From Schmidtea polychroa (lineage: Eukaryota), in assembly GCA_044892525.1 (NCBI GenBank), contig CM097885.1:14262001-14326000 (forward strand): DNA of 64,000 nucleotides, in the 5' to 3' direction. Position numbers and translations under genes: made by a program. This document shows, piece by piece, positions 1,195 to 31,669 of the stretch. Within the stretch, counting starts at the first letter, position 1. The number at the start of each line of letters is the position of its first letter. The notes under the pieces are model-generated. The model was not told where the DNA came from. It made no database searches and saw nothing but the letters and a program-made list of their open reading frames with translations.

Positions 1195-1549
1195 AGTAGG
1201 TAGTTAGTGGCCTACGGCAGCAATAGGGGGGGGGGGGGGGTAAAAATGTTGCAAACTTTTGATTGCATAACTTTTTCCGTAGACATTTTTTGATTACATA
1301 ATTGTTGCTGTAATGCCCAATGTTTTCTGGGATTTTAAATACAAAATTTTTTTTTTTTTTTTTCAATAAACAAGCCAAGGATAAATATTATTTGGGTGGG
1401 TCTCCTTGGTCCTGAGAATTTCAATAGAAAAAGGTAGTCTTCAATAAAAAAGCATGGATTTTTCACACTATAGTGAGGGGATCTTCTTGGTCATGAGAAT
1501 TTCAATAGAAAAGGTGGTTTACATTAAAAAACGCATAGTAAATTTTTAA

Positions 1550-2320
1550 AATAAAGCAAATTATGGTCCTAAAAAATTAAATTAAAGTAAATGATGGGTC
1601 TAAAAATTTAAGTAAATCAAGGTTCAGATTTATTTTTGAAATAAAGTAAATTATGGTCTAAATAAGTAAATTATGGGCTAAGATTTTTCAATTAAAGTAA
1701 ATAATGGTTCTAAAAAATTAAATTACAGTAAATTATGGTCCAAATTTTTAAATTAAAGTAAATTATGGTTCTTAAAAATTAAATTAAAGTAAATTATGGT
1801 CAAAATTTTTGAATTACAGTCCAAAAATTTAAATTAAAGTAAATTATGATCCAAATTTTTAAATTAAAGTAAATTAAAGTAAATAATGGTTCTAAAAAAT
1901 TAAATTAAAGTAAATAATGGTCCTAAAAAATTAAATTACAGTAAATAATGGTCAAAAATTTTAAAATTAAAGTAAATTAAGGTTCTAAAAATTAAATTAA
2001 AGTTAATTAAGGTCCAAATTTTAAAATTAAATAATCAATGGTAAAAAAAATTTAAATTAAAGTTAAATAAGTAAATTAAAGTAATATTTTTTAAATAAGT
2101 AAATTAAAGTAATGTAATAAGTAAATTAAAGTAAGATTTTAAAATTTATTAACAAAAAGTTGAAGGTGTTTGAGAATTGAAATTTTTTAATGGAAATTTT
2201 TATGAATTATTTTTTAAGTAATTTTTAATGGAAATTTTTAAGAATAATTTTCAATGATAATTTTAGATGGAAATTTTAATAGAATAATTTTTAAGATAAT
2301 TTTTAATGAAAATTTTTATG
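1550..2320. repeat. Subterminal AT-rich minisatellite (AAATTAAAGTAAATTATGGTC-like)
   Basis: Degenerate tandem units; mirrored at ~16380-17140; diverged copies at ~8100-9180, ~9510-10590 and ~50850-51400. Confidence 0.85.
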
Positions 2321-2321
2321 A

Positions 2322-2383
<62 letters not shown>

Positions 2384-2521
2384 TAATATTAATAATATAT
2401 CAACCAAATACTATACAACACATAAAAAATTAACTAAACACATAAAAATGAACTAGACACATAACAAACATAAAAATTTACCAAATAACAAATGTAAAGA
2501 TATAAAATTTATTCAATAAAA

Positions 2522-5500
2522 TTAGTCCTCATCGGACAAAATAACGTCATCGATATCGATGTCATCTTCTTCATTAAATTCTTCCTCATCTTCTCCATCA
2601 TTTTCTCCATCATTTTCTCCAACATTTTCTGAAACATTTTCTGCAACAATTTCTCCAACATTTTCTCCAATATTTAATTCACTTAATCTTACATGCCCAT
2701 ATGCAAGACTAGTATTTTTCCCCACCCAAACCCTTTTGTCATCTTTGTTAGTTAGTGCTATTTTTGTGTTTTTAATTGTAAAAATTTGATGATTTTTGCT
2801 TGTTATTTTAGTCTGAGGAACCGAAAAAATCTGGTTAGTGTTATAACAATCGAGGTATGACTGATGTTTTATGTCACTACCTTTCAATGTTACACCTTTA
2901 GCCTTTTTTGTTTCATCATCACCCAACAAGCTATAACATTTAGGTCTAAGAAAAACCCACTCCTTATATTTAAGACCTTTATTCTCGTCTTTGAACTTTC
3001 CAATGACTGAATCAAGGTTCTTGCTATATAAGGAATGACAACTATTGTAATTGGAAGTATCCAATAAATTATCTCGAATCATTGCAGGTAAAAGAACCTC
3101 AAGTTTGCAGTTAATGACTTCGAGGAAAAAAGAATCTGTATCACCAGCAACGATATTAATTTTACAATTAAACTCATTGCGAAATGATTCCAGATCCTTA
3201 TATTGCAATTCATACATTCTAAGTTTAGATAGATCAAGTACAGATTGACCAATGTAACTCGGTCTATCTAAACATATAGAATCTGAATTCAATAATGTTG
3301 CAATTAAATTATCTGCTATTTTAATAGATTTTTTAAAAGTCGGTTTTGACGAATATTTAACTAATTTACCGGCAGTTGTACAAAGACGAAGATTCATTCT
3401 TCTCTTTAAATTTTCAACTGTTTTGCCGTATAAACTGTTATTTAGCAATTTATAATAATTTTTATCTAAGTTATTTACGCTTTTTGATCTTAATTCGGTA
3501 TTTGTATCTATATATTTTTTAAAAATTGGTGATTGCTTAAATCTTACACCCCTATTTACACGTGTTACTTTAACACCAAGTTCCAAATATAATTTTAATA
3601 ATCTCCAATGAATAACATAATTAGATTTTGGAAGATGAGTTAATAATAATTTTTCAACCTTAGACCCAGCAGGTTTCATTTTTTCTGCAGCTACAGGGAA
3701 ATCATCCAACTTATCATGAAGCTCAGAAGGAATTACAAGATCAACTTCAAGTGTGTATCCATAAGACAAAGATTCAAGATTTAAATTCCTACATTCATCC
3801 ATTATTTTATCAAATCCATCAAGAACCCAACAAAATTCGCCACAAGGTAATGATTGACTTAAAGCCCACCCATAAAGATTATTAATATCTATATAAAGTA
3901 ACTCGGTGTTCTCGTCGGTTTTTACGTAATGCTTATTCACAAAAGTAAGACCGCCTCTTATTCCACCCTCATAAAAGCTAAACATTTCGTTTTCAGTTAT
4001 GAGTTCAATTGGTTCATTTAAAGATATTAATGCAGAAGACCAAGACATGCCTGGAATTCCGAAATAATTCAAAGGCTCTAATCTATTGTGAGCAATTGAT
4101 TTCAACCTAAACTGATGAAAGAAATCAGCCAAAAGAAAACAATCAAGTTTTAGGTAGATCATCATATAATCTAATAAAGTTCTGCAATTAGATTCTACCC
4201 AAATCTCCTGAGCTTTTTCATACTCAAGCTCAGTGACACCCTCCCAGATTGGTGGTAATTCATACGTAGTTTGTAGAACATCTAAAGAAGTGGCGAAATT
4301 ATAAGGGAAGATTCCTTTTTCACATACTATGGTGCCAGAAAAAGCAGAATTAGTAAAAGGCAAAGAATTCAAAGTTTTGACTGCTTTAGCCAAAGAATCA
4401 TTGACAAATTGATATGAATCAATGAATCTTATGCTAATTTTGCCTAAATGAGCAATCAAAGATATAAATTTTTCCGTAGTTATTGGGATGCACCCTAAAT
4501 TCCAATTTTTAAATTTATTTAATCCATATTTAAGTATATGATGCATATCGTATCCCTTCAAGTTGTGAAATACGATAGGCAAAATTTTATTTATTTTTCT
4601 ATTTACGTTACATGTGCTACAAGCTGCACCCAAGTATTTGCCCGTAAAATGATCGTGATCTCTAACAGGATCCACGATAGATTTCAAACAAAGATAACAA
4701 ACCGTTGAATTAATGAATTGTTGTTGCTCAATTTTAGTTAATTTAATCATTGGTTTCCTACCCATTTTATAATAAAAAGGAAGAACCTTATTTAATGCTA
4801 TATCCTCTATAGCACTTAAAAAACTCTCGACGCAATCTAAACCTATAAACTGTTGATAGGATTTAGATCCGTCAAAGTTATTTACTAGTAAAAGACCAGC
4901 AGATATTGGCATGTGTCGCTGAAAATGATCATTATCACAAGGTAAAATAGCCTCAAAATCGGCATAAACTACGAAAGGAGGAGTTACTGTTTTCGACCAG
5001 TCAGTAAACTGTAAGAATTTATTTTGAGGGAAAGTATAAAGAGTTGTTCCTAATTGATTGCGTTTGCATAATATTTCATGTTTTTCTAGTGCGTTTCTAT
5101 TATTAAACCCATTCAAACACCGATGGCACCATAATGAACGTATGCGTGTAGGACAACTAGTGTTTATGTGGCAATTCAGTAACCTATTTAAATTGCTTAT
5201 AGCAATGTAATGGAAATTGTTCCCTTTATTTAATAATAGTAAATTAATTACTGTTCCATTTAAAACTTTGGAACGATGTATAATGTCTAAATGGGGGTGT
5301 TTTAAAACGTAATTATCTATTAATTGTTTGTTATGGTCATAAGAAAAAACATTAATTATTAAACCAGGATTTTTGGCCTCGAATTTTCTAATATCTTTTA
5401 ATTTCATTGGTAAGTCTAATGGATTATATATTAACTCAGATAAATTATAACTAGATGTCCTATTTCTAGCATAACTACTAACCTCATCATATTTTAAAAT

Positions 5501-6925
5501 AGCTAAAATGCTATATAAAAAACACGAATCATCGGTGTTTTTTACATTAATTAAACAATATTTATTTTTTAGACAAGTAGGTAGTTCAATGAAACTCCTA
5601 CCACTTAATCTACTTAGCCTACTTATCTTTGTTATGGTGAAGTGAATTTCAGTTATTTTTTTTATGATCCAGCTACTTCCTAACTCTGTGATATTACTTA
5701 TTTTCTCGTTTAGTTCCCTAATGCCTTCGTCAAAAAATGAGGCAGTTAAAGGTTTTGCGTAATTCGAAATATTATTAACCTTTATTTCCCCGTCTTTTTC
5801 AAATTCGATTGTTATTCCGAATTGAATTTTGACGGAGCCTAATTCGTTAATAATATCTCGTAATTTTATAATTAATTGTTCAGGAAATATTATTTCCTTT
5901 ATATTCAAGTTACTTGTATTTAAACTTAATATTTGATGGGTACCCCTTAGATCTTTTTGTATTATGGGAACATTACCCCCTATTTGTATTATATTTAATC
6001 CATCCCAAGAATCAAAGGAATTGAATAATCCGACCTGGGATTCAACAAAAGGCAATCCGACCTGGGATTCAACAAAAGATAATCCGTCCTGGGATTCAAC
6101 AACCAATCCATCATTGGATTCAACAAAAGACAATCCAGCCTGGGATTCAACCTCTAATCCGACCTGGGATTCAAAAGAAGAAGTATCTAATTTAATTTTT
6201 TTATTTGTATTATTTTTTTCTATAGTTGATGGTCTTTTAAAAACACTATCTTTTTTAAAATTAAACCTATCTAAATGATGTTTATGTTTATTATAAAAAA
6301 CGCTATATGTTACAGGGTCACTAGTCTTACATATGGGGCATATAAAAAAAGTTTTATTATAATATTTTTTCGTGTAATAATTCTCCATTATAGAATGGCA
6401 ATTATTATCATGTTCTTTCGATGAACAATAATTTGGGTAAAGTATACCTATAAAATAAAAATTTAATAAAAAAATATATATATATATAATTTAAATGAAA
6501 TATTTTAATAAATGTTTACGCATAAATTTACAAATTTTATTTACTAAAAAAAATAAAAATTTACTAAATTAAAAATATTAACATTTAATTAAATAAAAAA
6601 TTATATTAAATTTCCTTTAAATTATATAAAAAAGTAATCAATACTTACATTGTAAATTTTCATTTCGATTTATTGACACATTGACATAATTTTTCTCTTT
6701 ATTCGTATTACCTAAATTATTAATTAATTAAATCAATAAATAAAAAATTATGTTTACTTTTTCTTTTCAAATTTCCTTTAATCTTCGATTTTAAATTGTC
6801 TTCATTAATATTATCTAAATTAATTAATAAATTAATTAATAAATTAATTAATAAATAAATTATAATTTACCAAATTCCTGAATTTTTCCTCGAACATTCA
6901 TAACGTTTTCTATTAAAGAATTCAT
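2522..6925 (-). CDS. polB: Protein-primed DNA polymerase B, left-arm copy; predicted exons 6925-6871, 6814-6758, 6711-6649, 6447-2522 (1366 aa)
   Basis: 1288-aa ORF with Exo I YADFE, Exo II HNLKGYD, Exo III YLKLD, Pol A DINNLYG, Pol B KLLNNSLYGK, Pol C DTDS and KCY; EndoVII-like DHDH…CSTCN insert; three GT-AG phase-1 introns restore an upstream ATG. Confidence 0.93.
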
Positions 6926-8099
6926 TTTTAAAGGTTAACTATTTGTTAAATGTGACTAATAATTGATTATTGTTTATAGATTATTATTGTTTATAGATTA
7001 TTATTGTTTATAGATTATTATTGTTTATAGATTATTATTGTTTATAGGAACAAATTCTAACCAATCAAAATCAAGGAAGGGTAGGGAAAAATATATTACG
7101 TTGCGGTATTTTAAAATTAAAATTTATTTTAAAAACACATTTTGACGTTAAAGTCGAGTTATGTAACAAAGACATAATAAACTTATTATTTACTACAAAT
7201 ATTTCACCTGTCAAATACCTAACTAGAGATGCTATATATTGATTGTTCATAAAAGCAAACTTAATCATAAATTTCTGTATATTATTTTGTAAATTATTTC
7301 TGTAAATTAAATTTTGTATATTATTTCTGTAAATTATCAAGTAAATTTAAAGTTCTTGATAAGGTTAACTGGTTTCTTAGCTTATGTTTTTTTTTAAAAA
7401 GTTCATCAATGTGTAAATATTCTTAGAAAATTATTGAAAAAAAAAATATTTAGTCAAATGCATTACAAAGTCATCTAAAATTAAACCAATTACTTAATTA
7501 TTAACATAACAGTCATTTAAAAAAAAAATTAATTTTTATTTAAAATTTAACAAATTATCAAGAAATTCAATTAAAATCATCATTAAAACTTTAAATTTTT
7601 TAATAAATCAACATGAAATTCTTAGAAATATGAAAAAAAATATTATTACAAAGTTATATCCTATCACATGATTATTAACCTGACTGTCATTAAAAATAAT
7701 TTTTATTTAAAAAAAAAACCAATCAATTAAAATGCATCCAATTATCAAGAAATTAATTAAATTTATTTAGAACTAACTTAAAATTTTTAAATATTCATTC
7801 AATAAACATGAAATTCACGAAAATGATAAAAATTCACAAAAACCATCAACTCTAAAAAAATAATTACTAATGAATACCTTAAACACCAAAATTTATCTAA
7901 ATAATCTTTCAAATTAATTCATTAAAATTGAAGACAACACGCTCTATTTTGTCATTACATTCAATTAAAATTAAATAAATCAAGATAAGAACTTTGATAA
8001 AAAATATTATTCTAAAATGGTAAAAATTAACACTGTAGTGTTAAATGAAAAGGTAATTATTCTTTAAATCTAATTAACTTAGTCATAATTTTCTTTAAT

Positions 8100-9180
8100 T
8101 TAACCCTTTATTTACTTAATTTAGTCCTTGTTTACCGAATATAGAAGTTTAAAATATAGACCATTGATTACTTTAATTTAAAAATGTATCCCTTAATTTA
8201 CATAATTTCAATCTAAAATTATTTCAAAAAATTTTTTCTAAAATTGTCATTGAAAAATATTTCATAAAAGTTTTCATTTAAAATTTTCATTGAAAAATAT
8301 TTCATAAAAATTTTCATTAAAAATTATCTTAAAAATTATTCCATAAAAATTTCATTAAAAAATTTCAATTCTCAAACACCTTCTATTATTTTGTTAATAA
8401 ATTTAAAATCTTACTTTAATTTGCTTATTACATTACTTATTTAAAAATTATTACTTTAATTTACTTATTTAAAATATTTGACCATTGATTACTTAATTTA
8501 AAAATTTGGACCTTAATTTACTTTAATTTAATTTTTTAGAACCTTAATTTACTTTAATTTTAAATTTTGAACCTTAATTAACTTTAATTCAAATTTGGAC
8601 CTTAATTTACTTTAATTGAAAATTTTAGACCATAATTTACTTAATTGAAATTTTAGACCTTAATTTGCTTATTTATCTTTAATTTACTTAAGTTTAAAAA
8701 TATATACCATAATTTACTTAATTGAAATTTTAGACTTTATTTTAGAACTTAATTGAAAATTTTAGACTTTATTTTAGAACTCAATTGAAAATTTTAGACC
8801 TTAATTTCATGTAAAATTTTAGACCATAATTTACTTATTTGAAAATTTTAGACCTTAAATTGCTTAATTGAAAATTTTAGACCTTAATTTGCTTATTTAT
8901 CTTTAATTTACTTTAATTTAAAATTTTAGACCATAATATACTTAATTGAAAATTTTAGACCATAATTTCATGTAAAATTTTAGACCATAATTTACTTAAT
9001 TGGAAATTTTAGACCTTAATTTGCTTATTTATCTTTAATTTACTTAAGTTTAAAAATATATACCATAATTTACTTTAATTGAAAATTTTAGACCATAATT
9101 TACTTAATTGAAAATTTTAGACCTTAATTTACTTAATTGAAAATTTTAGACCATAATTTTAATGTAAAATTGTCATTGAA
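8100..9180. repeat. Inner, diverged inverted copy of the subterminal minisatellite
   Basis: e.g. AATTCTCAAACACCTTC at ~8370 is the reverse complement of GAAGGTGTTTGAGAATT at ~2165. Confidence 0.8.
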
Positions 9181-9209
9181 AAAATTTTCATTTCTCAGGC
9201 GCTGTTTAT

Positions 9210-9481
9210 AGTAGGTAGATAGGAGCCCGCTGCAAATGCAAGCCTTTTTTTTTGCTGCAACTTTTTTTTGCTGCAACTTTTGATTACGCAATTGTTGCAA
9301 CTAGTTTTTTTTTGTTGTATTTTTTTTGTATTATTACGCAATTGTATTATTTTTTTTTCTAGAATTTTCAATACAAAAAAAAAACAAGTTGCAACAATTG
9401 CGCAATCAAATGTTGCAGCAAAAAAAAAGATGCAGCATAAAAAAAAGGCTTGCATTTGCAGCGGGCTCCTATCTACCTACT
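9210..9481. repeat. 272-bp imperfect central hairpin with its own AGTAGGTAG…CTACCTACT termini
   Basis: AGTAGGTAGATAGGAGCCCGCTGCAAATGCAAGCC at 9210 and its exact complement ending at 9481; scattered mismatches inward, then an unpaired loop near 9320-9370. Confidence 0.9.
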
Positions 9482-11730
9482 ATAAACAGCGCCTGAGAAA
9501 TGAAAATTTTTTCAATGACAATTTTACATTAAAATTATGGTCTAAAATTTTCAATTAAGTAAATTAAGGTCTAAAATTTTCAATTAAGTAAATTATGGTC
9601 TAAAATTTTCAATTAAAGTAAATTATGGTATATATTTTTAAACTTAAGTAAATTAAAGATAAATAAGCAAATTAAGGTCTAAAATTTCCAATTAAGTAAA
9701 TTATGGTCTAAAATTTTACATGAAATTATGGTCTAAAATTTTCAATTAAGTATATTATGGTCTAAAATTTTAAATTAAAGTAAATTAAAGATAAATAAGC
9801 AAATTAAGGTCTAAAATTTTCAATTAAGCAATTTAAGGTCTAAAATTTTCAAATAAGTAAATTATGGTCTAAAATTTTACATGAAATTAAGGTCTTAAAT
9901 TTTCAATTGAGTTCTAAAATAAAGTCTAAAATTTTCAATTAAGTTCTAAAATAAAGTCTAAAATTTCAATTAAGTAAATTATGGTATATATTTTTAAACT
10001 TAAGTAAATTAAAGATAAATAAGCAAATTAAGGTCTAAAATTTCAATTAAGTAAATTATGGTCTAAAATTTTCAATTAAAGTAAATTAAGGTCCAAATTT
10101 GAATTAAAGTTAATTAAGGTTCAAAATTTAAAATTAAAGTAAATTAAGGTTCTAAAAAATTAAATTAAAGTAAATTAAGGTCCAAATTTTTAAATTAAGT
10201 AATCAATGGTCAAATATTTTAAATAAGTAAATTAAAGTAATAATTTTTAAATAAGTAATGTAATAAGCAAATTAAAGTAAGATTTTAAATTTATTAACAA
10301 AATAATAGAAGGTGTTTGAGAATTGAAATTTTTTAATGAAATTTTTATGGAATAATTTTTAAGATAATTTTTAATGAAAATTTTTATGAAATATTTTTCA
10401 ATGAAAATTTTAAATGAAAACTTTTATGAAATATTTTTCAATGACAATTTTAGAAAAAATTTTTTGAAATAATTTTAGATTGAAATTATGTAAATTAAGG
10501 GATACATTTTTAAATTAAAGTAATCAATGGTCTATATTTTAAACTTCTATATTCGGTAAACAAGGACTAAATTAAGTAAATAAAGGGTTAAATTAAAGAA
10601 AATTATGACTAAGTTAATTAGATTTAAAGAATAATTACCTTTTCATTTAACACTACAGTGTTAATTTTTACCATTTTAGAATAATATTTTTTATCAAAGT
10701 TCTTATCTTGATTTATTTAATTTTAATTGAATGTAATGACAAAATAGAGCGTGTTGTCTTCAATTTTAATGAATTAATTTGAAAGATTATTTAGATAAAT
10801 TTTGGTGTTTAAGGTATTCATTAGTAATTATTTTTTTAGAGTTGATGGTTTTTGTGAATTTTTATCATTTTCGTGAATTTCATGTGGATTGAATGAATAT
10901 TTAAAAATTTTAAGTTAGTTCTAAATAAATTTAATTAATTTCTTGATAATTGGATGCATTTTAATTGATTGGTTTTTTTTTTAAATAAAAATTATTTTTA
11001 ATGACAGTCAGGTTAATAATCATGTGATAGGATATAACTTTGTAATAATATTTTTTTTCATATTTCTAAGAATTTCATGTTGATTTATTAAAAAATTTAA
11101 AGTTTTAATGATGATTTTAATTGAATTTCTTGATAATTTGTTAAATTTTAAATAAAAATTAATTTTTTTTTTAAATGACTGTTATGTTAATAATTAAGTA
11201 ATTGGTTTAATTTTAGATGACTTTGTAATGCATTTGACTAAATATTTTTTTTTTCAATAATTTTCTAAGAATATTTACACATTGATGAACTTTTAAAAAA
11301 AAACATAAGCTAAGAAACCAGTTAACCTTATCAAGAACTTTAAATTTACTTGATAATTTACAGAAATAATATACAAAATTTAATTTACAGAAATAATTTA
11401 CAAAATAATATACAGAAATTTATGATTAAGTTTGCTTTTATGAACAATCAATATATAGCATCTCTAGTTAGGTATTTGACAGGTGAAATATTTGTAGTAA
11501 ATAATAAGTTTATTATGTCTTTGTTACATAACTCGACTTTAACGTCAAAATGTGTTTTTAAAATAAATTTTAATTTTAAAATACCGCAACGTAATATATT
11601 TTTCCCTACCCTTCCTTGATTTTGATTGGTTAGAATTTGTTCCTATAAACAATAATAATCTATAAACAATAATAATCTATAAACAATAATCAATTATTAG
11701 TCACATTTAACAAATAGTTAACCTTTAAAA

Positions 11731-14700
11731 ATGAATTCTTTAATAGAAAACGTTATGAATGTTCGAGGAAAAATTCAGGAATTTGGTAAATTTTAATTTA
11801 TTTATTAATTAATTTATTAATTAATTTATTAATTAATTTAGATAATATTAATGAAGACAATTTAAAATCGAAGATTAAAGGAAATTTGAAAAGAAAAAGT
11901 AAACATAATTTTTTATTTATTGATTTAATTAATTAATAATTTAGGTAATACGAATAAAGAGAAAAATTATGTCAATGTGTCAATAAATCGAAATGAAAAT
12001 TTACAATGTAAGTATTGATTACTTTTTTATATAATTTAAAGGAAATTTAATATAATTTTTTATTTAATTAAATGTTAATATTTTTAATTTAGTAAATTTT
12101 TATTTTTTTTAGTAAATAAAATTTGTAAATTTATGCGTAAACATTTATTAAAATATTTCATTTAAATTATATATATATATATTTTTTTATTAAATTTTTA
12201 TTTTATAGGTATACTTTACCCAAATTATTGTTCATCGAAAGAACATGATAATAATTGCCATTCTATAATGGAGAATTATTACACGAAAAAATATTATAAT
12301 AAAACTTTTTTTATATGCCCCATATGTAAGACTAGTGACCCTGTAACATATAGCGTTTTTTATAATAAACATAAACATCATTTAGATAGGTTTAATTTTA
12401 AAAAAGATAGTGTTTTTAAAAGACCATCAACTATAGAAAAAAATAATACAAATAAAAAAATTAAATTAGATACTTCTTCTTTTGAATCCCAGGTCGGATT
12501 AGAGGTTGAATCCCAGGCTGGATTGTCTTTTGTTGAATCCAATGATGGATTGGTTGTTGAATCCCAGGACGGATTATCTTTTGTTGAATCCCAGGTCGGA
12601 TTGCCTTTTGTTGAATCCCAGGTCGGATTATTCAATTCCTTTGATTCTTGGGATGGATTAAATATAATACAAATAGGGGGTAATGTTCCCATAATACAAA
12701 AAGATCTAAGGGGTACCCATCAAATATTAAGTTTAAATACAAGTAACTTGAATATAAAGGAAATAATATTTCCTGAACAATTAATTATAAAATTACGAGA
12801 TATTATTAACGAATTAGGCTCCGTCAAAATTCAATTCGGAATAACAATCGAATTTGAAAAAGACGGGGAAATAAAGGTTAATAATATTTCGAATTACGCA
12901 AAACCTTTAACTGCCTCATTTTTTGACGAAGGCATTAGGGAACTAAACGAGAAAATAAGTAATATCACAGAGTTAGGAAGTAGCTGGATCATAAAAAAAA
13001 TAACTGAAATTCACTTCACCATAACAAAGATAAGTAGGCTAAGTAGATTAAGTGGTAGGAGTTTCATTGAACTACCTACTTGTCTAAAAAATAAATATTG
13101 TTTAATTAATGTAAAAAACACCGATGATTCGTGTTTTTTATATAGCATTTTAGCTATTTTAAAATATGATGAGGTTAGTAGTTATGCTAGAAATAGGACA
13201 TCTAGTTATAATTTATCTGAGTTAATATATAATCCATTAGACTTACCAATGAAATTAAAAGATATTAGAAAATTCGAGGCCAAAAATCCTGGTTTAATAA
13301 TTAATGTTTTTTCTTATGACCATAACAAACAATTAATAGATAATTACGTTTTAAAACACCCCCATTTAGACATTATACATCGTTCCAAAGTTTTAAATGG
13401 AACAGTAATTAATTTACTATTATTAAATAAAGGGAACAATTTCCATTACATTGCTATAAGCAATTTAAATAGGTTACTGAATTGCCACATAAACACTAGT
13501 TGTCCTACACGCATACGTTCATTATGGTGCCATCGGTGTTTGAATGGGTTTAATAATAGAAACGCACTAGAAAAACATGAAATATTATGCAAACGCAATC
13601 AATTAGGAACAACTCTTTATACTTTCCCTCAAAATAAATTCTTACAGTTTACTGACTGGTCGAAAACAGTAACTCCTCCTTTCGTAGTTTATGCCGATTT
13701 TGAGGCTATTTTACCTTGTGATAATGATCATTTTCAGCGACACATGCCAATATCTGCTGGTCTTTTACTAGTAAATAACTTTGACGGATCTAAATCCTAT
13801 CAACAGTTTATAGGTTTAGATTGCGTCGAGAGTTTTTTAAGTGCTATAGAGGATATAGCATTAAATAAGGTTCTTCCTTTTTATTATAAAATGGGTAGGA
13901 AACCAATGATTAAATTAACTAAAATTGAGCAACAACAATTCATTAATTCAACGGTTTGTTATCTTTGTTTGAAATCTATCGTGGATCCTGTTAGAGATCA
14001 CGATCATTTTACGGGCAAATACTTGGGTGCAGCTTGTAGCACATGTAACGTAAATAGAAAAATAAATAAAATTTTGCCTATCGTATTTCACAACTTGAAG
14101 GGATACGATATGCATCATATACTTAAATATGGATTAAATAAATTTAAAAATTGGAATTTAGGGTGCATCCCAATAACTACGGAAAAATTTATATCTTTGA
14201 TTGCTCATTTAGGCAAAATTAGCATAAGATTCATTGATTCATATCAATTTGTCAATGATTCTTTGGCTAAAGCAGTCAAAACTTTGAATTCTTTGCCTTT
14301 TACTAATTCTGCTTTTTCTGGCACCATAGTATGTGAAAAAGGAATCTTCCCTTATAATTTCGCCACTTCTTTAGATGTTCTACAAACTACGTATGAATTA
14401 CCACCAATCTGGGAGGGTGTCACTGAGCTTGAGTATGAAAAAGCTCAGGAGATTTGGGTAGAATCTAATTGCAGAACTTTATTAGATTATATGATGATCT
14501 ACCTAAAACTTGATTGTTTTCTTTTGGCTGATTTCTTTCATCAGTTTAGGTTGAAATCAATTGCTCACAATAGATTAGAGCCTTTGAATTATTTCGGAAT
14601 TCCAGGCATGTCTTGGTCTTCTGCATTAATATCTTTAAATGAACCAATTGAACTCATAACTGAAAACGAAATGTTTAGCTTTTATGAGGGTGGAATAAGA

Positions 14701-16134
14701 GGCGGTCTTACTTTTGTGAATAAGCATTACGTAAAAACCGACGAGAACACCGAGTTACTTTATATAGATATTAATAATCTTTATGGGTGGGCTTTAAGTC
14801 AATCATTACCTTGTGGCGAATTTTGTTGGGTTCTTGATGGATTTGATAAAATAATGGATGAATGTAGGAATTTAAATCTTGAATCTTTGTCTTATGGATA
14901 CACACTTGAAGTTGATCTTGTAATTCCTTCTGAGCTTCATGATAAGTTGGATGATTTCCCTGTAGCTGCAGAAAAAATGAAACCTGCTGGGTCTAAGGTT
15001 GAAAAATTATTATTAACTCATCTTCCAAAATCTAATTATGTTATTCATTGGAGATTATTAAAATTATATTTGGAACTTGGTGTTAAAGTAACACGTGTAA
15101 ATAGGGGTGTAAGATTTAAGCAATCACCAATTTTTAAAAAATATATAGATACAAATACCGAATTAAGATCAAAAAGCGTAAATAACTTAGATAAAAATTA
15201 TTATAAATTGCTAAATAACAGTTTATACGGCAAAACAGTTGAAAATTTAAAGAGAAGAATGAATCTTCGTCTTTGTACAACTGCCGGTAAATTAGTTAAA
15301 TATTCGTCAAAACCGACTTTTAAAAAATCTATTAAAATAGCAGATAATTTAATTGCAACATTATTGAATTCAGATTCTATATGTTTAGATAGACCGAGTT
15401 ACATTGGTCAATCTGTACTTGATCTATCTAAACTTAGAATGTATGAATTGCAATATAAGGATCTGGAATCATTTCGCAATGAGTTTAATTGTAAAATTAA
15501 TATCGTTGCTGGTGATACAGATTCTTTTTTCCTCGAAGTCATTAACTGCAAACTTGAGGTTCTTTTACCTGCAATGATTCGAGATAATTTATTGGATACT
15601 TCCAATTACAATAGTTGTCATTCCTTATATAGCAAGAACCTTGATTCAGTCATTGGAAAGTTCAAAGACGAGAATAAAGGTCTTAAATATAAGGAGTGGG
15701 TTTTTCTTAGACCTAAATGTTATAGCTTGTTGGGTGATGATGAAACAAAAAAGGCTAAAGGTGTAACATTGAAAGGTAGTGACATAAAACATCAGTCATA
15801 CCTCGATTGTTATAACACTAACCAGATTTTTTCGGTTCCTCAGACTAAAATAACAAGCAAAAATCATCAAATTTTTACAATTAAAAACACAAAAATAGCA
15901 CTAACTAACAAAGATGACAAAAGGGTTTGGGTGGGGAAAAATACTAGTCTTGCATATGGGCATGTAAGATTAAGTGAATTAAATATTGGAGAAAATGTTG
16001 GAGAAATTGTTGCAGAAAATGTTTCAGAAAATGTTGGAGAAAATGATGGAGAAAATGATGGAGAAGATGAGGAAGAATTTAATGAAGAAGATGACATCGA
16101 TATCGATGACGTTATTTTGTCCGATGAGGACTAA
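11731..16134 (+). CDS. polB: Protein-primed DNA polymerase B, right-arm copy; predicted exons 11731-11785, 11842-11898, 11945-12007, 12209-16134 (1366 aa)
   Basis: Translation identical to the left copy; introns of 56, 46 and 201 nt, all GT…AG and phase 1, with no stop in the joined frame. Confidence 0.93.
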
Positions 16135-16321
16135 TTTTATTGAATAAATTTTATATCTTTACATTTGTTATTTGGTAAATTTTTATGTTTGTTATGTGTC
16201 TAGTTCATTTTTATGTGTTTAGTTAATGTTTATATGTTTTGTTATGTGTCTAGTTATTTTTATGTGTTTAGTTAATTTTTTATGTGTTGTATAGTATTTG
16301 GTTGATATATTATTAATATTA

Positions 16322-16371
<50 letters not shown>

Positions 16372-17491
16372 TCATAAAAATTTTCATTAAAAATTATCTT
16401 AAAAATTATTCTATTAAAATTTCCATCTAAAATTATCATTGAAAATTATTCTTAAAAATTTCCATTAAAAATTACTTAAAAAATAATTCATAAAAATTTC
16501 CATTAAAAAATTTCAATTCTCAAACACCTTCAACTTTTTGTTAATAAATTTTAAAATCTTACTTTAATTTACTTATTACATTACTTTAATTTACTTATTT
16601 AAAAAATATTACTTTAATTTACTTATTTAACTTTAATTTAAATTTTTTTTACCATTGATTATTTAATTTTAAAATTTGGACCTTAATTAACTTTAATTTA
16701 ATTTTTAGAACCTTAATTTACTTTAATTTTAAAATTTTTGACCATTATTTACTGTAATTTAATTTTTTAGGACCATTATTTACTTTAATTTAATTTTTTA
16801 GAACCATTATTTACTTTAATTTACTTTAATTTAAAAATTTGGATCATAATTTACTTTAATTTAAATTTTTGGACTGTAATTCAAAAATTTTGACCATAAT
16901 TTACTTTAATTTAATTTTTAAGAACCATAATTTACTTTAATTTAAAAATTTGGACCATAATTTACTGTAATTTAATTTTTTAGAACCATTATTTACTTTA
17001 ATTGAAAAATCTTAGCCCATAATTTACTTATTTAGACCATAATTTACTTTATTTCAAAAATAAATCTGAACCTTGATTTACTTAAATTTTTAGACCCATC
17101 ATTTACTTTAATTTAATTTTTTAGGACCATAATTTGCTTTATTTTAAAAATTTACTATGCGTTTTTTAATGTAAACCACCTTTTCTATTGAAATTCTCAT
17201 GACCAAGAAGATCCCCTCACTATAGTGTGAAAAATCCATGCTTTTTTATTGAAGACTACCTTTTTCTATTGAAATTCTCAGGACCAAGGAGACCCACCCA
17301 AATAATATTTATCCTTGGCTTGTTTATTGAAAAAAAAAAAAAAAAATTTTGTATTTAAAATCCCAGAAAACATTGGGCATTACAGCAACAATTATGTAAT
17401 CAAAAAATGTCTACGGAAAAAGTTATGCAATCAAAAGTTTGCAACATTTTTACCCCCCCCTATTGCTGCCGTAGGCCACTAACTACCTACT

Positions 17492-17497: not shown

Positions 17498-17700
17498 ATG
17501 TTGTTACAGAGGGAGAGGGATTAATTAGTGAAGGTGGTAAACCAAATCCCATCAATCTTTTTATTGAATTAAGAAAACTATTAGCTGCAAGGAAAGCAGG
17601 ACATAATAATTTAGATTCTGATATTTTAAAGATTTCTAAAGATTTGTTAAAACAAGGAATAATTTCAAAAGATAAATTTAATAAGTATACGAAGTTATAA
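17497..17700 (+). pseudogene. Polinton conserved protein, 3' part (67 aa plus stop)
   Basis: YVVTEGEGLISEGGKPNPINLFIELRKLLAARKAGHNNLDSDILKISKDLLKQGII…; the LxxLLAxxxAGHN…L…GII C-terminus is a recurrent Polinton motif; in frame with 504-1194. Confidence 0.85.
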
Positions 17701-17722
17701 ATACGAAGTTTTAAAATACAAA

Positions 17723-18187
17723 ATGACTCCTTCAATATTAGATTTTTTAAAAACATTTGGAATAAATGCAAAAACAAATTTTGATTTAAAAGATTATGCA
17801 AATTATTTAAATTTAAAAATTAAAATATTAATGAATGATGAATTATCAAGTCTGGAGAGTCCCCTGAATATAATAATCAATTATCAAAATTCAAATGAAA
17901 ATGGATCTCATTGGGTTTGTATATATAAGAAATCTATCTACTTTGATTCTTTTGGGATTAAACCTACTAAAGAAGTTGAAGATTATCTCTTGGGGGGTTC
18001 TCCGATTGATTCCCCAAATGGTTATACTTTTAACTCTTTACAAGTTCAACCTTTGAATACTAAAATATGTGGTATTTTAAGTTTATATGTTTTGTATAGA
18101 TTGAATAAGGGAGAGGGAAAGGGGCATACGCAGGATTTTGAATCTATAATTCAAGAAATTTATAATGATCTAGAATCTCTACTATAA
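17723..18187 (+). CDS. Adenain-like cysteine protease (Polinton PRO)
   Basis: GSHWVC…YFDSFG…QVQ…ICG, giving the His-Asp-Gln-Cys order of adenoviral C5 proteases. Confidence 0.92.
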   Translation: MTPSILDFLKTFGINAKTNFDLKDYANYLNLKIKILMNDELSSLESPLNIIINYQNSNENGSHWVCIYKKSIYFDSFGIKPTKEVEDYLLGGSPIDSPNGYTFNSLQVQPLNTKICGILSLYVLYRLNKGEGKGHTQDFESIIQEIYNDLESLL

Positions 18188-18235
18188 GGATTTTTACTAT
18201 AAGGATTTTTACTATATGAATTTACTACTAAAGAA

Positions 18236-19000
18236 ATGGAGCTTCACAACCCTCCGGAAGATAATTTAAAAAAAATGGTAAACATAATGTCAGATAAATA
18301 TTCAAGAACTTTATCTATAAATTCAAAAGAATCAGACTTTACTATAAACTTTCAAGATTCAATTAAATTAGATCAAAATTTAAATTATGAATTGGGGCTA
18401 TTATGGTTTTGTGCTTATAATACTATTTTTAATATAACTAAAGATAATAATAAATTTACTATTCAAACTCGTGATGGGCATAAACCAGAAATTATAACAA
18501 TAGAACCTGGGGCATATGAGATAAAAGATTTAAATGATATACTTTCTAAAAAAACAAATGAAGGTATTAAAATTAAAATGGATATACCAACTTCAAAATG
18601 TGTAATGACTTTGAAGAATATAAAAATTAGTTTTTTAGATAATTGTTTCTTTCACACAGTTTTAGGATTTAAACCTATGGATATAACAATAAAAGAAGAT
18701 AAAATAATAACATCAGAACATATTATAAAAATAATAAATACAAACACAATAAATATTCATTGCGATTGTATAACAGGTTCTTATAATAATGGTAAACAAA
18801 CAAATGTTTTATATTCCTTTCCCTCAAACACAGTTCCTATGGGATATAAAATAGTTGAAAGAATGAATCCTCCAAATTATTTACCTTTATGTAGAAAATA
18901 TATAATGGATATTAATTTTAAAATTCTTAATCAAGAAGGAGAATTGATTGATTTTAATGGAGAAGAGATTTCAATGTATTTACATTTGAAACAGGTTTGA
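18236..19000 (+). CDS. Minor capsid protein (penton, single jelly-roll)
   Basis: YELGL…YNTIFNI…PGAYEI…INIHCDCITGSYNNG…LYSF…GYKIVE…YLPL…IDFNGE pattern of Polinton minor capsid proteins; adjacent to the protease. Confidence 0.8.
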   Translation: MELHNPPEDNLKKMVNIMSDKYSRTLSINSKESDFTINFQDSIKLDQNLNYELGLLWFCAYNTIFNITKDNNKFTIQTRDGHKPEIITIEPGAYEIKDLNDILSKKTNEGIKIKMDIPTSKCVMTLKNIKISFLDNCFFHTVLGFKPMDITIKEDKIITSEHIIKIINTNTINIHCDCITGSYNNGKQTNVLYSFPSNTVPMGYKIVERMNPPNYLPLCRKYIMDINFKILNQEGELIDFNGEEISMYLHLKQV

Positions 19001-19024
19001 AGATTCATTTTAAATTATTAATAA

Positions 19025-20035
19025 ATGAGTTCTTATATTCCATGTAATAGAGGTGGTGGAACAATAAAAACAGGGTTTAATACAGAAGAAATATTAACTT
19101 TAACAGAAAATAAATATATTAATGAAAGAGGTGATTCAATGAAGGGTGATTTAATTTTAAATGGACACAAGATAAAAGAATTATCTTTTCCAACTGATGA
19201 AGCTGATGCAGTTAATAAGAAATATGTAGATGGTGTTAAAAAATATACTGATTTAACAACAACAAGAATTGAAAGTTCATTAACAACAAAAATTGATTCA
19301 ATGGAATCAAAGCTTAATAATATCGAACAACGATTTAATGATAAATTTGACAAGTTACAAAGTCTGTTAACTGAACAAGTTGTAAAGTTAAATACTGCTA
19401 TATTAAATTCTAAAGATAAACAAATTATGAATACTAAATTTAATACAATATATAAAATAATAAATGAGATGATTACATCATTTAATAAAAGAATTTCAAA
19501 TTTAGAGTCTCATGGAACACACATTAACACCACACATAGTATTAGAAAAAGAGCTGCTGAATTAGAACAGAATAAAACATTATTACCCCATACATATAAA
19601 CATTTTATAGAACCAAGTTTAATAACAACAAACAGTAAAGAATGGGGTGTTTTTATGGTTGTAAAAATTATTGATCCTTATTTCTTTTTGTTTGATGATG
19701 ATAATGAAAGAATGAAATGGTTTGTGAAATGTGATTATAATAGTAAGCTTGAAAAGGGTGATGTTATAATGACTAGTTATGATTTACCACACGGAGATTG
19801 GTATGTTAATACTCATTCACATGGACTACATAAAGTTAAAAGTAAGAATATTCATTTTTCTAGTTCACTTGTACAATATATAGATTTAATATTTTATGAA
19901 AAAAAGGTTGATGTTGATGAAGTTCGTAAAGCATTGAGAGAATTGTATAAAGATATCCTCTCAACAAGAGTTTCTTTTGATATCCGAGTATTGGTGCCAG
20001 ATGGTGCTCAGAAGAATAAAGTCTTATTTTTTTAA
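19025..20035 (+). CDS. Putative fibre/spike protein
   Basis: N-terminal GDSMKGDLILNGHKIKEL…PTDEADAVNKKYVD fibre-type repeat, then a coiled coil and an unrelated C-terminal domain. Confidence 0.6.
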   Translation: MSSYIPCNRGGGTIKTGFNTEEILTLTENKYINERGDSMKGDLILNGHKIKELSFPTDEADAVNKKYVDGVKKYTDLTTTRIESSLTTKIDSMESKLNNIEQRFNDKFDKLQSLLTEQVVKLNTAILNSKDKQIMNTKFNTIYKIINEMITSFNKRISNLESHGTHINTTHSIRKRAAELEQNKTLLPHTYKHFIEPSLITTNSKEWGVFMVVKIIDPYFFLFDDDNERMKWFVKCDYNSKLEKGDVIMTSYDLPHGDWYVNTHSHGLHKVKSKNIHFSSSLVQYIDLIFYEKKVDVDEVRKALRELYKDILSTRVSFDIRVLVPDGAQKNKVLFF

Positions 20036-20043
20036 TTATTAAA

Positions 20044-20640
20044 ATGGAAGAAGTAAGAGAAGAAAAAATTTACCCAGAATTGAGATCATCAGGATATTAT
20101 TCTTCCAAGGCCTCGGCTCCCACAGAACTTGAAATTATGAGAGTAAAAGAATTTAAATCAGAAACCTTACATTTACAAGATTTATTAAAGCATTATAAAA
20201 AAATTAAAAATAGATGGAATAAAGGGAATACAGTTTTAAAAGTTATAGGTTATTCTTTAGGATTTGCATCTGCAATATTAACAGTTATTTTACCCATAAC
20301 TTTACCAGTTGTTACTCTTGCACCTGTAATACTTGGAAGTATTTCTGTGGCTGATGGTTTCTTAACTGAAATAGTTTCATTATCTTATACTTCTAAAAAG
20401 AAAAGTTTATATAGAGAAGTTTGTTTATCAATAGAATTAGGAATCTCTAAATTATTTTTATTTCAATTAAAAGCTTTGGAAGATGGAATCCTGACAGACG
20501 AAGAAATAATGAAATCAAATCAAATAATACAAGATATAAAGAATGAGGTTATAAGATTAAAAAGGGAGGGCATGGTGGCTAATGTTATAAGTAATAAAAA
20601 AACATCTCGAGAAAAATGGTTAAAGAATTCTTACTTATAA
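20044..20640 (+). CDS. Polinton/adintovirus membrane protein (so-called gasderminX-like)
   Basis: IYPEL…SAP N-terminus, helical region, long hydrophobic stretch, KALEDGILTDEE motif. Confidence 0.55.
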   Translation: MEEVREEKIYPELRSSGYYSSKASAPTELEIMRVKEFKSETLHLQDLLKHYKKIKNRWNKGNTVLKVIGYSLGFASAILTVILPITLPVVTLAPVILGSISVADGFLTEIVSLSYTSKKKSLYREVCLSIELGISKLFLFQLKALEDGILTDEEIMKSNQIIQDIKNEVIRLKREGMVANVISNKKTSREKWLKNSYL

Positions 20641-20726
20641 AATGGGTGTATTTTTAAAAAAGTAGATCAAGTTGATATAGTTGCTTAAATTAATTGTCGA
20701 CATTTTATTATTAAATATCGTTGGTT

Positions 20727-23700
20727 TCAGTTATGGTTGAAAGCCAACCTATGAATCATTAATTTATGATCTTTAAATTCTTTATCACTTAGACCTTTTA
20801 TATATTCAGGATCAGTATTAAAATATTTAAGTTCTAAACATATAGGATTAAAAACTTGAGAATATAAAGGTTTCTCGATTTCTCTCTCGGGATAAATAAT
20901 TTCAACATTATAAATATCAAGATCAGTAATCTTTGTATCATATAACTTATTCAACTTTTCTAGATTTTTTATTATAGGGATTAAATTATTTCCAATAGGT
21001 AGAGTTGTCTTTAAATCACTTAGTATGAATCTCTTATCATCATAATTTGATAATGATACTTTTTGAGATTCTATCAAGTGAATATCATGGTTTTCACTTT
21101 TAAGTTGATGTACTTCATCAATTTTATCTTTATGATTTGGATTCAATGTATCTATATAATCTTGATGAGAAAGATTCTTTGCAACCACTCTCTGTATTCC
21201 TTTACATCTGTTATCCTTTACAGGTTTTTCTTCTTTAGGAAATATAGGATATCTATGTGTAATGGTTTCTTCTGTTTCTGGAGTTTTAAATATAAATGAT
21301 CTAGTTATAAATTCAGGGTTTCTAAATGTTTCGTATGAATATTGTTTAGCACGAATAAATATTCCATTTTCTATAGGAGTAAAAGGTTTTTCATCTTTAA
21401 ACGAAAATAGTTCTCCAGATGAATTTATTAAATTTGAAAGTATAGGATTTTCAGCTATATCTCTTTGTAAATCATGAGTTCTTATTGTTAAAAACATTGA
21501 ATCTGTATCCATTGCATGCATTGATATATTTGCTCCGTATATAGGTTGTAAGATGTTATAATATGTTTCATACATTTGTAATTTTGAAAGTTCTAAAATT
21601 GTAAACCCTATAAATATTGGTTTGTTATATGTTTTCTCATAATTTTTTAATTCTACTGCAGTAAGATTTTCAGAAAATACTTGTGCGTTTTTAAATGTAG
21701 GCTTTCCTAGCATGCGATTATAACGCTTAATATCTTTGGTAGTATTTGTTAGGAGTTCAATATTAGTATATTTATCAACATTCTCCATTGTTTTCCCAAA
21801 TACTGAATTGTTTAAAATTTTATAATTATTATCTTTAAAAAGGTTACCTTCTCTTTTTGCAATGTTTCGACACCTAATGTTCTCCTCGATAAAAGCTTTC
21901 ATGAATGGAGCTTGTTTAAATCTTATGACACTATGAACTTTTTTTAATATCATTCCTCGTGAGAGATAAAATTGGAGGAGTCTATAGTGACAAAGATAAA
22001 ACCTTCGATCTGTTTGATCACAAAGAAGTTTCATTGTTGGAGGTTTATCTTGTGAGATTTGCCATTCAGAAAGTTCGTTGATATCAATCTTTCTTCTTAT
22101 GGGAGCTAAAGGAAAATATCTTGTTCCTGATTTTATAACATCTGGATAGTCGAGGTCACATTCTATAAAGTAACCTATTGGAGAATCTTTCGATGTTGAA
22201 AGTATTTCTTTCATAAGGTCATCTGTTGGGTTCTCTATTTCAGTGAAATCACTCATTGGTAAATATTGAGTCATAATTCCTGAATATAAAGCTGTTGCAT
22301 CTATATAAAGTATAAATATAGGATTTTTCATTGTTTCTAATAATTCTTTTAATTCCTCATTGTTAATTTTCATATATGGATCATCAGGGTGTTTAGATAG
22401 TCTTCGGCTAGTAGTTATTGCATTTCTAGCTTTTATTTCTCTATTCCCCATTACTGAAGAGACTCCTCCTCTAATGTTTGTTTTAATTTGGTTAAACATA
22501 TCGAGGTTAGTTAAAAGATCTATAATTTTATCAGCATCTTCTATATTTGAAGTCCAAATGGTATATAACATAGTATCTCAAGCTAAAGAGGGTGCAGTTA
22601 TATAATTATAAGGTTTAAGAACAAAAGAGTTTGTAAATTCTTCAAAGCAATCTGCTAGAATATAAACATCTAAGGATAAATACATGTTGGTATATTCTCC
22701 TAAAGTTTTACACTTGAATAATTCCCACATTTTTAATGCTCGAGAATATTCTTGATCTGTAATCCCTGATTGTAGTAAGTTTGAAAAGAAATCTTCTTTG
22801 TTAGGAAGACTTGTTTCATTATATCTTTCAAACGAGTCAACATAGTCATAAGGATATATTCCTTTTGCTAAGCATGTAGGATATTCTTCTGGAGGATTAT
22901 TATTTTTTTCCAAGAATTCTCGAGTGATTTTAAAATTTTCTGGTTTCATTGTTTTTGCTACTGCATCTAGAGACATTTGGAGAAAGTTTAACGAGTCTAT
23001 AAATTTTAATTTTCCATATTCAACTGATTTATATTTTTCTTTTGTTAAGCCGATAACTTTGAAAGAGTTTTTAGCATTTGCTGCTAAATGTTTAATAAAT
23101 AGATGTATGTCATATCCAAAAAGATTATGAAATATAACAGGTATAAATTTAGGAGTATGGCAATTAAGATTGCAATTTTTATGAGCTGCTCCTCGATAAT
23201 TATTTTCCTTTTTTAAATGATCATGATCTATAACTTTTTCATCAGGAAGAATATTCTGTTTACACATCCAACAGTTGGAAGTATTTTCATATTCTTGTTG
23301 TTGTTGATTAGAAATATTTTGAGGATACTTTGTTTTTAATATTTTAAATATTTCATGTTCTAGATCATTTATATTTTTAGTAAAATGATTCAAGACTTCT
23401 TCAGGGGTACCTCCTAGAATTGAATATTCTCTAGATTCTATGAGTTCAGGATAATTACTTTTAAATAATAATTTATAAGCAGATGGTAATTGTTTAGTTT
23501 TTTTAACACTATTAGGTTTATTTCTTTTTCTTAGAAAGGCTTTCATCCTCTCTGGTTTCATCTTCTCTCCTGAGGAGTTCCATAAATCCATGAGTTTATT
23601 TTTTTCTATTATTTTTAAATATTGATAAACCAAATCTTGTTTATGGTTTATAGATTCAAAGTCACCATAAAGAACTCCAACTGTTTGTAGTAAATTTGAA

Positions 23701-25046
23701 AAATTTTTAAAATACATCTTGGGATTATTAGGCATATTTATTAAAGCTGGATCATCTTTTTCACAAAATCTTGTATGTTTAATCATAGAGTTTTTAGTTG
23801 TTGAATAATGAAGACATCTTTTACATGTTCCTCCTCCACTAGTTGGATTCTCTGGTGATGTAAAAGCTTGAAAGTTTTTTATTAAAACATAATGTTGATT
23901 ATTTTGTTGTTCCAAGATTAAAAGATATATCTCGTTGTCCTGTGCTCCGTTATCCTTGGTTCCACTATCTGAAATATAAATTGGAATAATTTCTTTCCCT
24001 ATAACATGTTCATAAATATTAAGTTTAAGATTATTTAATTTTTCAAATTCTGGAATGTCTTCTAGTTTCATTGGGTGTTTGAATCCTTTGGGAAATATTA
24101 ATTCATTTTCATATTGTTTGTATTTTGAAACTCTTTGGGGATTTGTTGCTTGAGGATGTAAATGTGCAAGTATTGACCAGATGAAACATTTGTTATCATT
24201 ATTCTGTACATTTATAACATTTTTAGATTTAAAGGGTGTAGGAATATAAGATTTAGGATTGGGTGGTAATCCTCTCCAATCATGAATCACTAAAGTTTGG
24301 AAAGAGTTGAATTCTAAGTTTGAATCTCCTAATTCATTTTCTACTTCCTCTTGTTTTGCTTCTGCTGCTTTAATTATTTCTTTGATGGTTTTATCAAATC
24401 CTTTAATTGAAAATAAATATTTAAAAGGTATTCCAATTTCAACATCTAAGGGTGTTGTCTTTTCTTCTGCTCCTCGCCAGTATTTTGCTTTGATTATAAT
24501 TTTATATTTTATAACATTATACCTTGTCGGTTTATAATTTTTTAAAGCTTCAGTGAAAGAATTTTTAATATTTTTTTTATTTTTATTTATATATTCTCCA
24601 GGAGTTGCAGGCCCATTAATTTTTAATTGAAATTCATCTATATGATTAAAATTATCCCAGTTATATTTTTCTCTTTCAACATGATCAGGTTCTCCTTCTG
24701 AATGACATTCCTCATCGTCAGAATTTTGTTTTTTATTTTTACATTCTTTTATATGTTCTAAATAATAGAAATTTAGTTTTGTTGAAAAGTTACAATGAGG
24801 ACATGTAAATATTTCTCTATTTTTCCATATACAATTTTCAAAATGTTTATTATATCCAGAATGTAGAAATCTTCCTTTACATTTAGGACAAACTTTTGAA
24901 TTTGTATCATTAAGATTGTTTTCTTTTAATAAATGAGCTTTCGATTTTAAGTGAGAAATTAATCCAGTTTTATTTTTAAAAACTTTATTACAAATATTAC
25001 AATTCATTTTTAGAAAAAAATTTTTTATTGGATACCCTGTTTTCAT
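20727..25046 (-). pseudogene. polB: Polinton pPolB with N-terminal C2H2 fingers, split by an in-frame TGA at 22580-22578
   Basis: Two ORFs in the same frame: …TAPSLA*DTML, where the family has W; motifs YGDFE, HNLFGYD, DATALY, KILNNSVFGK, DTDS. Confidence 0.9.
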
Positions 25047-25113
25047 TTTATTTTTTAAGATTTATATTATTCATTTTTTATAAATTAAAAATTAAAAAAA
25101 TGACAAAAATCCA

Positions 25114-26330: not shown

Positions 26331-31669
<5,339 letters not shown>

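Follow-up and report, generated by a model that had tools for sequence, protein, structure and literature searches.

The palindromic element and its polymerase genes

The window analysed here (64,000 nucleotides of Schmidtea polychroa contig CM097885.1, with position 1 as its first letter) contains at 1195..17491 a palindromic Polinton-type element that is 16.3 kb long, has AG...CT termini, a 6-bp target duplication (AGGGTT on both sides) and a 186-nt non-paired centre. One arm carries a pPolB gene on the forward strand, with a predicted start at 11731 and an end at 16134, and the other arm carries a mirror copy of the whole gene on the reverse strand (2522..6925). These two pPolB copies are the sole long ORFs of the element; no integrase, packaging ATPase, capsid protein or protease gene was found in it, and it is therefore a non-autonomous Polinton derivative. 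The mirrored structure that the sequence-only reading placed at 6925-6389 is present and differs from the leader region (below) at 1 of 540 nt, but it cannot serve as independent support, since the two arms form a single palindromic element and the palindromic pPolB-only structure is a family trait. In the genome searched (781 Mb in 1,012 contigs), 28 of the 40 full family matches form 14 head-to-head pairs within 6 kb, and these pairs rule out an assembly artefact as the origin of the mirror copy. Inverted arms are present in 7 of 9 fetched locus pairs (among L187-L198 and L201-L202), 6 of the 9 having been picked because paired matches were already evident, and the fetched palindromic loci likewise have no long ORFs other than pPolB. 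Perfect 6-bp target duplications were seen at two further loci and a one-mismatch duplication at a third. A terminus-like motif that points inward is present at the centre of the window element and of L192, L193, L196 and L201.

The neighbouring sequences (1-1196 and 17498-25061) are parts of a distant Polinton, and the palindromic element sits inside one of its ORFs. This Polinton has a protease, a penton-like ORF and a C2H2-bearing pPolB (28% identity) with an internal stop, and its ORFs have in-frame ATGs close to their starts. The argument that the polymerase introns stand out against intronless genes of the neighbouring Polinton is consequently not supported, as the neighbours belong to a different Polinton lineage. 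Elsewhere in the window lie a low-complexity ORF (40537-41427) that contains acidic SIM-like stretches and a tandem repeat of 60 nt, and a hAT transposase in two overlapping frames with a BED finger and a dimerisation domain (60337-62240).

The main exon of the forward pPolB gene (exon 4, 12209..16134) encodes the remainder of a predicted double zinc motif, linker repeats, an inferred TP region, vOTU Cys/His motifs, Exo I and II, an HNH/EndoVII-like insert and Pol A/B/C; an AATAAA follows at 16143. Its catalytic motifs are intact (YADFE, FHNLKGYD, YIDINNLY, KLLNNSLYGK and GDTDS), and we take these to be the Exo I/II and Pol A/B/C motifs. The HNH-like insert in the exonuclease region matches PF02945 with E = 0.0032 and 17.8 bits, which is under the 23.6 cut-off. 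Homologues carry PF03175, and the window protein itself is below detection for that family.

A predicted spliced leader and the putative zinc motif it would complete

The first in-frame ATG of the long polymerase frame (12166-16134) is at 12268, with none upstream of it. Ahead of this frame lie three predicted exons on the same strand: exon 1 (11731..11785, 55 nt, 27% GC) starts with an ATG in an AAAATG context, exon 2 (11842..11898, 57 nt, 18% GC) is basic and has at its end a KRK that may be NLS-like, and exon 3 (11945..12007, 63 nt, 22% GC) ends with the first letter of a split Cys codon. The introns between them are 56 nt (11786..11841, GTAAAT...TTTAG, 4% GC), 46 nt (11899..11944, GTAAAC...TTTAG, 9% GC) and 201 nt (12008..12208, GTAAGT...TATAG, 8% GC) long; all three are phase 1, their donors and TAG acceptors are U2-type signals, and the position of the third is conserved across sister families (below). 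The joined exons contain no stop and add 78 codons before ATG 12268. Exon 3 has no in-frame ATG, so some upstream exon is required, and intron 3 has stops in all three frames. A predicted Pol II promoter (11624..11683) consists of a reverse CCAAT (GATTGG, 11624-11629) and three TATAAA boxes (at 11644, 11661 and 11678) in a 17-bp tandem repeat. Exon and intron coordinates, phases, the stop-free joining and the gain of 78 aa are exactly as the sequence-only reading had them, and the reverse CCAAT, which it put about 105 nt upstream, is 107 nt before the ATG by measurement. That reading also likened these introns to those of a host gene at 43-44 kb. There is indeed a predicted host gene there (42573-44150), WD40-like and with five introns that range from 38 to 369 nt, and its predicted introns (42963-44119; 48, 51, 369, 61 and 38 nt, with donors that include GTAAAT, GTGAGT and GTAATT) are similar in length and donor text, but they are richer in GC (42, 39, 12, 21 and 32%).

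How readily such a chain arises in AT-rich DNA was measured with a frame-blind walker, which takes account of donor text and local GC, accepts the first suitable AG and ignores the reading frame. Started at ATG 11731, this walker, whose thresholds were fixed only after the sequences had been seen, returns exons 1-3 exactly; started at 1,289 ATGs in other window DNA it gives 6 three-exon chains, none of them stop-free. Dynamic programming on codon usage only, with splice-site scores left out, did not recover the three-exon model and chose one other exon (11440-11551, donor GTGTTT, score 1.7). The leader is intact in all 30 of the near-identical family copies fetched. Intron 3 has seven indel alleles, exons 1-3 have none and the first 122 nt of exon 4 have one, a contrast that is weak evidence because of slippage-prone sites.

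Intron 3 splits a Cys codon, and the splice junction would create the first Cys of a predicted motif: the spliced N-terminus reads C-x6-C-x4-H-x3-C followed by C-x2-C-x14-H-x2-H, which is eight potential zinc ligands and, judged from this pattern, would bind two zinc ions. Six of the motif ligands are invariant in 10/10 sequences and a seventh is present in at least 9/10. The Met at 12268 is invariant in the same 10/10, as are the Tyr, Cys, His and Cys that precede it, and conservation of these four residues ahead of the called Met means that the protein must begin further upstream. In the metagenomic homologues L107 and P0009, which are 44-46% identical over the compared region, the Met and first Cys are contiguous with no intron between them, and the spacings after that Cys are C-x5-C and C-x6-C. 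Splicing would thus supply a residue that in intronless relatives is already part of the uninterrupted frame. The stretch L107:690-965, which precedes the contiguous homologue, contains a TATAAA, a small ORF that starts with ATG and a GT-AG phase-1 intron-like segment of 43 nt, and it is possible that this is a small spliced gene in a distant relative.

The AlphaFold model of the zinc region, with a mean pLDDT of 57, was not good enough to search for similar folds, and the Pfam matches of the region were weak zinc-finger hits, none better than E = 0.014. A PDB sequence search with the family profile had no matches, and the profile search for longer proteins had one, P0009. Seventy-three pattern matches in IMG/VR included no confirmed relative, and of 80 loci kept from the JGI metagenomes only L107 reached the N-terminal motif; direct tblastn of these metagenomes with the motif region missed even L107. 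Another homologue, P0001, is available as a called protein only, and it was called from the Met equivalent to 12268.

Sister families and assembled contigs

A second pPolB gene of the same clade lies in the window on the forward strand. It has an acidic, phase 1-1 leader exon (26331..26462, 132 nt), an intron that splits the homologous Cys codon (26463..27521, 1,059 nt, with AAT microsatellites) and a main exon (27522..31669) that is interrupted by an in-frame stop (28319-28321); neither its promoter nor its first exons could be found within the window. The gene has an AG at the homologous codon and shares the intron of the palindromic element's polymerase. A genome search with the N-terminal peptide of this second pPolB gave 4,577 candidates, of which 150 were scored and proved to fall into several subfamilies. 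In 50 sister-family loci (the top 30 of the ranked list and 20 picked across the ranking) an AG is present at the homologous acceptor site in 49, and the two letters after it are always GT or GC, which together with the leader make up a TGY codon.

These acceptors bear on the possibility that the GT-AG pattern is chance in AT-rich DNA and that the gene is expressed unspliced from ATG 12268. Such a view agrees with the calling of P0001 from the equivalent Met, with the failure of the codon-only parser to find the model and with the lack of a direct exon 3-4 junction among the contigs described below. The 0/1,289 control, the 49/50 homologous acceptors, the conserved residues ahead of Met 12268 and the contiguous homologues that carry the first Cys all contradict it, and we regard it as extremely unlikely.

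Twenty-two leaders were examined further. An ATTGG...TATAAA pair lies 85-119 nt ahead of the ATG in 13 of them, and these 13 were walked frame-blind (the 9 that lack the promoter motif in the DNA fetched were left unwalked). The walker stopped early in L095 and L098, overran in L096 and chose a doubtful first acceptor in L106. Phase 1 was found for 46 of the 57 introns in the walked leaders; the other 11 are all in four copies that have an exon-length indel relative to intact sisters or are otherwise frameshifted, and in the nine unshifted leaders 37/37 introns are phase 1. The window family has three leader introns, against 4 to 5 or more in six other leader types; wherever a leader is complete, its last intron splits the cysteine codon. 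First exons are 46-52 nt long in the sister families versus 55 nt here. The leader introns differ in length and sequence both among themselves and between families, and in L095 and L098 exons 3 and 4 are tandem duplicates together with their flanking introns. Compared by eye, exons 1-3 of the window family have no protein similarity to the sister leaders beyond a terminal Gln-Cys. Several of those leaders (L087, L093, L095, L097, L105 and L106) are acidic and contain repeated SIM-like motifs, among them IIIISDEEEE, IIITDDEE and DDVVFIG, none of which is present in the window family's own leader; we take these to resemble SUMO-interacting motifs, in which a hydrophobic core and an acidic tail bind SUMO.

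We conclude that the leader introns are very likely real and that the spliced leader is very likely the true start of the polymerase, and put the probability that the leader is a real feature at about 0.85. One could still suppose that only intron 3 is functional, that exons 1 and 2 are miscalled or untranslated and that the protein starts elsewhere upstream: the two exons have no recognisable homologue among the sister leaders, exon 2 is only 18% GC and neither has usable contig cover. Against this, the frame-blind rule yields the full chain and produced no stop-free control chain, the promoter spacing, first-exon length and phase agree with those of the sister families, and 30/30 copies are intact, so that we consider it quite improbable.

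Assembled contigs of four runs, none of which is recorded as RNA (X1 and X6 are RNA by guess only), were placed on 11500-12420, where run X7 contributed no contig; 11789-11947 was skipped as repeat, which excludes junctions 1 and 2 from this placement. A single X1 contig (depth 5.6) matches 11948-12009 without differences and then continues from donor 3 in foreign letters, which fits donor 3 joined to a foreign acceptor. The foreign tail matches another repeat at 14 places within 3 mismatches, and this repeat is preceded by TAG in 7 of the 12 loci fetched; the tail is 2-3 letters off every genomic match, its best fit is to five loci without an AG, and in the 10 kb upstream of the 14 loci there is no copy of the element. 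The source of the foreign sequence is a clustered repeat family (L031-L042, in G000 C1 at 5-11 Mb and in C144). One contig in X1 and one in X6 run unspliced from the final 12 nt of intron 3 into exon 4. An X1 contig that starts exactly at 12209 was considered as splice evidence and rejected, as its 31st letter is a variant at 12239 that explains the break. For the proposed junction 12007/12209 the contigs therefore point both ways, one leaving at donor 3 and two being unspliced, with no exon 3-exon 4 join among those placed. Splicing of the leader is strongly predicted from the genomic DNA.

The unspliced contigs raise the question of whether intron 3 is real but regulated, with retention or an internal start giving a shorter polymerase from ATG 12268 that would lack the first zinc site, as a tissue or stage switch. 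The third intron of the Drosophila P element, which is spliced in the germline only, is a parallel for such a switch. Contigs unspliced at acceptor 3 occur in both of the RNA-guessed runs that have coverage, and Met 12268 is invariant in 10/10 sequences; on the other hand, DNA or pre-mRNA from hundreds of copies explains such contigs equally well, and the stops in all three frames of the intron mean that a retained form could give protein only from a downstream start. This reading is compatible with a spliced leader and extends it, and we hold it to be possible though on the unlikely side.

Origin, proposed function and comparison with known systems

Polymerases that have the Cys-splitting intron in common are separated by 0.93 substitutions per site and show 55-59% identity over the compared region, so the intron predates the divergence of these families. 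The polymerase tree is rooted by midpoint only, and so gives no direction of intron gain versus loss, and it was built without nematode or oomycete references; in it P0002 may group with the window's family (83/80 support). Genes assigned by their motifs as ATPase, integrase, both capsid proteins and protease are retained in the intron-bearing relatives. Their adenain-like protease has an apparent 5-nt first coding exon (ATG GA) followed by a 33-39-nt phase-2 intron in 8/8 loci (L205, L208, L210, L212, L214, L215, L100 and L105), with AG at the intron's 3' end in seven and AA in L212. Two small accessory genes, read by eye in L205, L210, L212, L214 and L215, appear to begin with a short exon that is followed by a GT-AG intron of ~40-45 nt in phase 1, in 5/5 and 4/4 loci. 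The intronless-neighbour contrast thus finds no footing inside the intron-bearing clade either, where protease and two accessory genes look spliced as well as the polymerase. With capsid genes kept and other genes apparently spliced, introns are a trait of this clade and no sign of its leaving viral life. The long nuclear residence that had been deduced from the introns is upheld to the extent that the Cys-splitting intron predates the families; it is weakened by the capsid genes of intron-bearing relatives and by the splicing of adenovirus pTP and polymerase mRNAs, as described in the accessible part of PMC11304566.

A different origin would be capture of the leader from a host gene, by insertion of an element downstream of a host promoter, or recent insertion of the introns as introners. 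There are precedents for both in the available portions of two reports: nematode Mavericks have intronless core genes and hold intron-containing host cargo (wasp, krma) (10.1101/2022.07.12.499685), and introners occur in dinoflagellate Polinton-like elements (10.1101/2025.03.18.643946). Here, however, the promoter and leader exons lie inside the element termini and move with at least 40 copies, the introns are unlike each other and unlike between families, as those of a young introner family are not, and the last one interrupts a codon in a motif whose coding sequence is continuous in homologues. We judge this origin improbable; an ancient capture of host 5' exons may have occurred.

Our preferred reading, to which we give a probability of roughly 0.85, is that pPolB is transcribed from the CCAAT/TATA promoter, that the host spliceosome removes the three phase-1 introns, and that translation starts at ATG 11731 and would yield a predicted 1,366-aa protein in which the last junction forms the first cysteine of the predicted double zinc-binding motif. 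The leader and zinc module would precede the inferred terminal-protein domain, and if the vOTU cuts between TP and vOTU, both would stay on the protein primer at the DNA end. There a role in nuclear import would fall to the window family's basic leader, and SUMO binding to the acidic leaders of the sister families. As all leader exons are phase 1-1, they can be duplicated or lost without a break of frame, and such gain and loss would explain the 3 to 5 or more introns found among the families. A broader picture, in which a capsid-encoding Polinton clade has a host-style architecture with phase-1 micro-exon turnover, a poly-SUMO-binding leader in most families and a host-controlled splicing switch between two polymerase forms, is speculative and we think it rather unlikely.

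Intact vertebrate Polinton genes are described as lacking introns (PMC8097293, in the accessible part, citing Kapitonov and Jurka 2006), and intronless core genes are a described Polinton trait rather than a defining one. The accessible text on the HNH-bearing pPolB2 type (10.1101/2023.08.22.554363) has no mention of spliceosomal introns, nor has that on the domain order TP-vOTU-Exo-palm, in which cleavage between TP and vOTU is proposed (10.1101/2024.03.18.585575). The available portions of PMC6431247, 10.1101/2024.03.25.586562 and PMC8532177 contain nothing on a spliced pPolB, and we found no report of conserved spliceosomal introns in Polinton pPolB in the literature covered, of which the sources were in part accessible and which lies outside Repbase, most subscription papers and supplements. 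Annotation treats each Polinton core gene as a single ORF. If the leader is spliced, ORF-based catalogues truncate the polymerase of this clade, and probably its protease as well, and leave out both a zinc ligand and a leader on the terminal protein that evolves fast. Splicing would also mean that a virus-like element that encodes the full set of capsid genes can acquire the exon-intron structure of host genes and can evolve through duplication of exons, and that its expression is tied to the host spliceosome, which bears on host range, on horizontal transfer and on the origin of adenovirus-type spliced replication genes.

Like the HNH-bearing pPolB2 of Polintons/Mavericks, the window pPolB has Exo I/II, Pol A/B/C and vOTU Cys/His motifs, and its HNH/EndoVII-like insert, although below the Pfam cut-off, may be a further likeness; the element resembles them in its AG...CT termini and 6-bp target duplication, and its relatives in their ATPase, integrase, both capsid proteins and protease. 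It departs from them in its multi-exon pPolB leader with a predicted N-terminal double zinc motif, and in that the window family is palindromic and encodes pPolB only. Nematode Mavericks likewise have host-style introns inside the element, but theirs are in captured cargo, whereas those described here are in the core polymerase and apparently the protease. Dinoflagellate Polinton-like elements also contain spliceosomal introns; these introners are repeated, transposon-derived and mostly inserted after integration, in contrast to the apparently non-repetitive, position-conserved introns found here at the 5' end only. The adenovirus E2B genes (pTP and Ad-pol) are similar in that they encode related protein-primed replication proteins from spliced nuclear mRNAs with short 5' exons. 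Adenovirus, however, uses shared distant leader exons and alternative acceptors to make two separate proteins, while the polymerase gene described here would have short, local, phase-1 introns in the coding leader of one fused protein, with exon numbers that are specific to each family.
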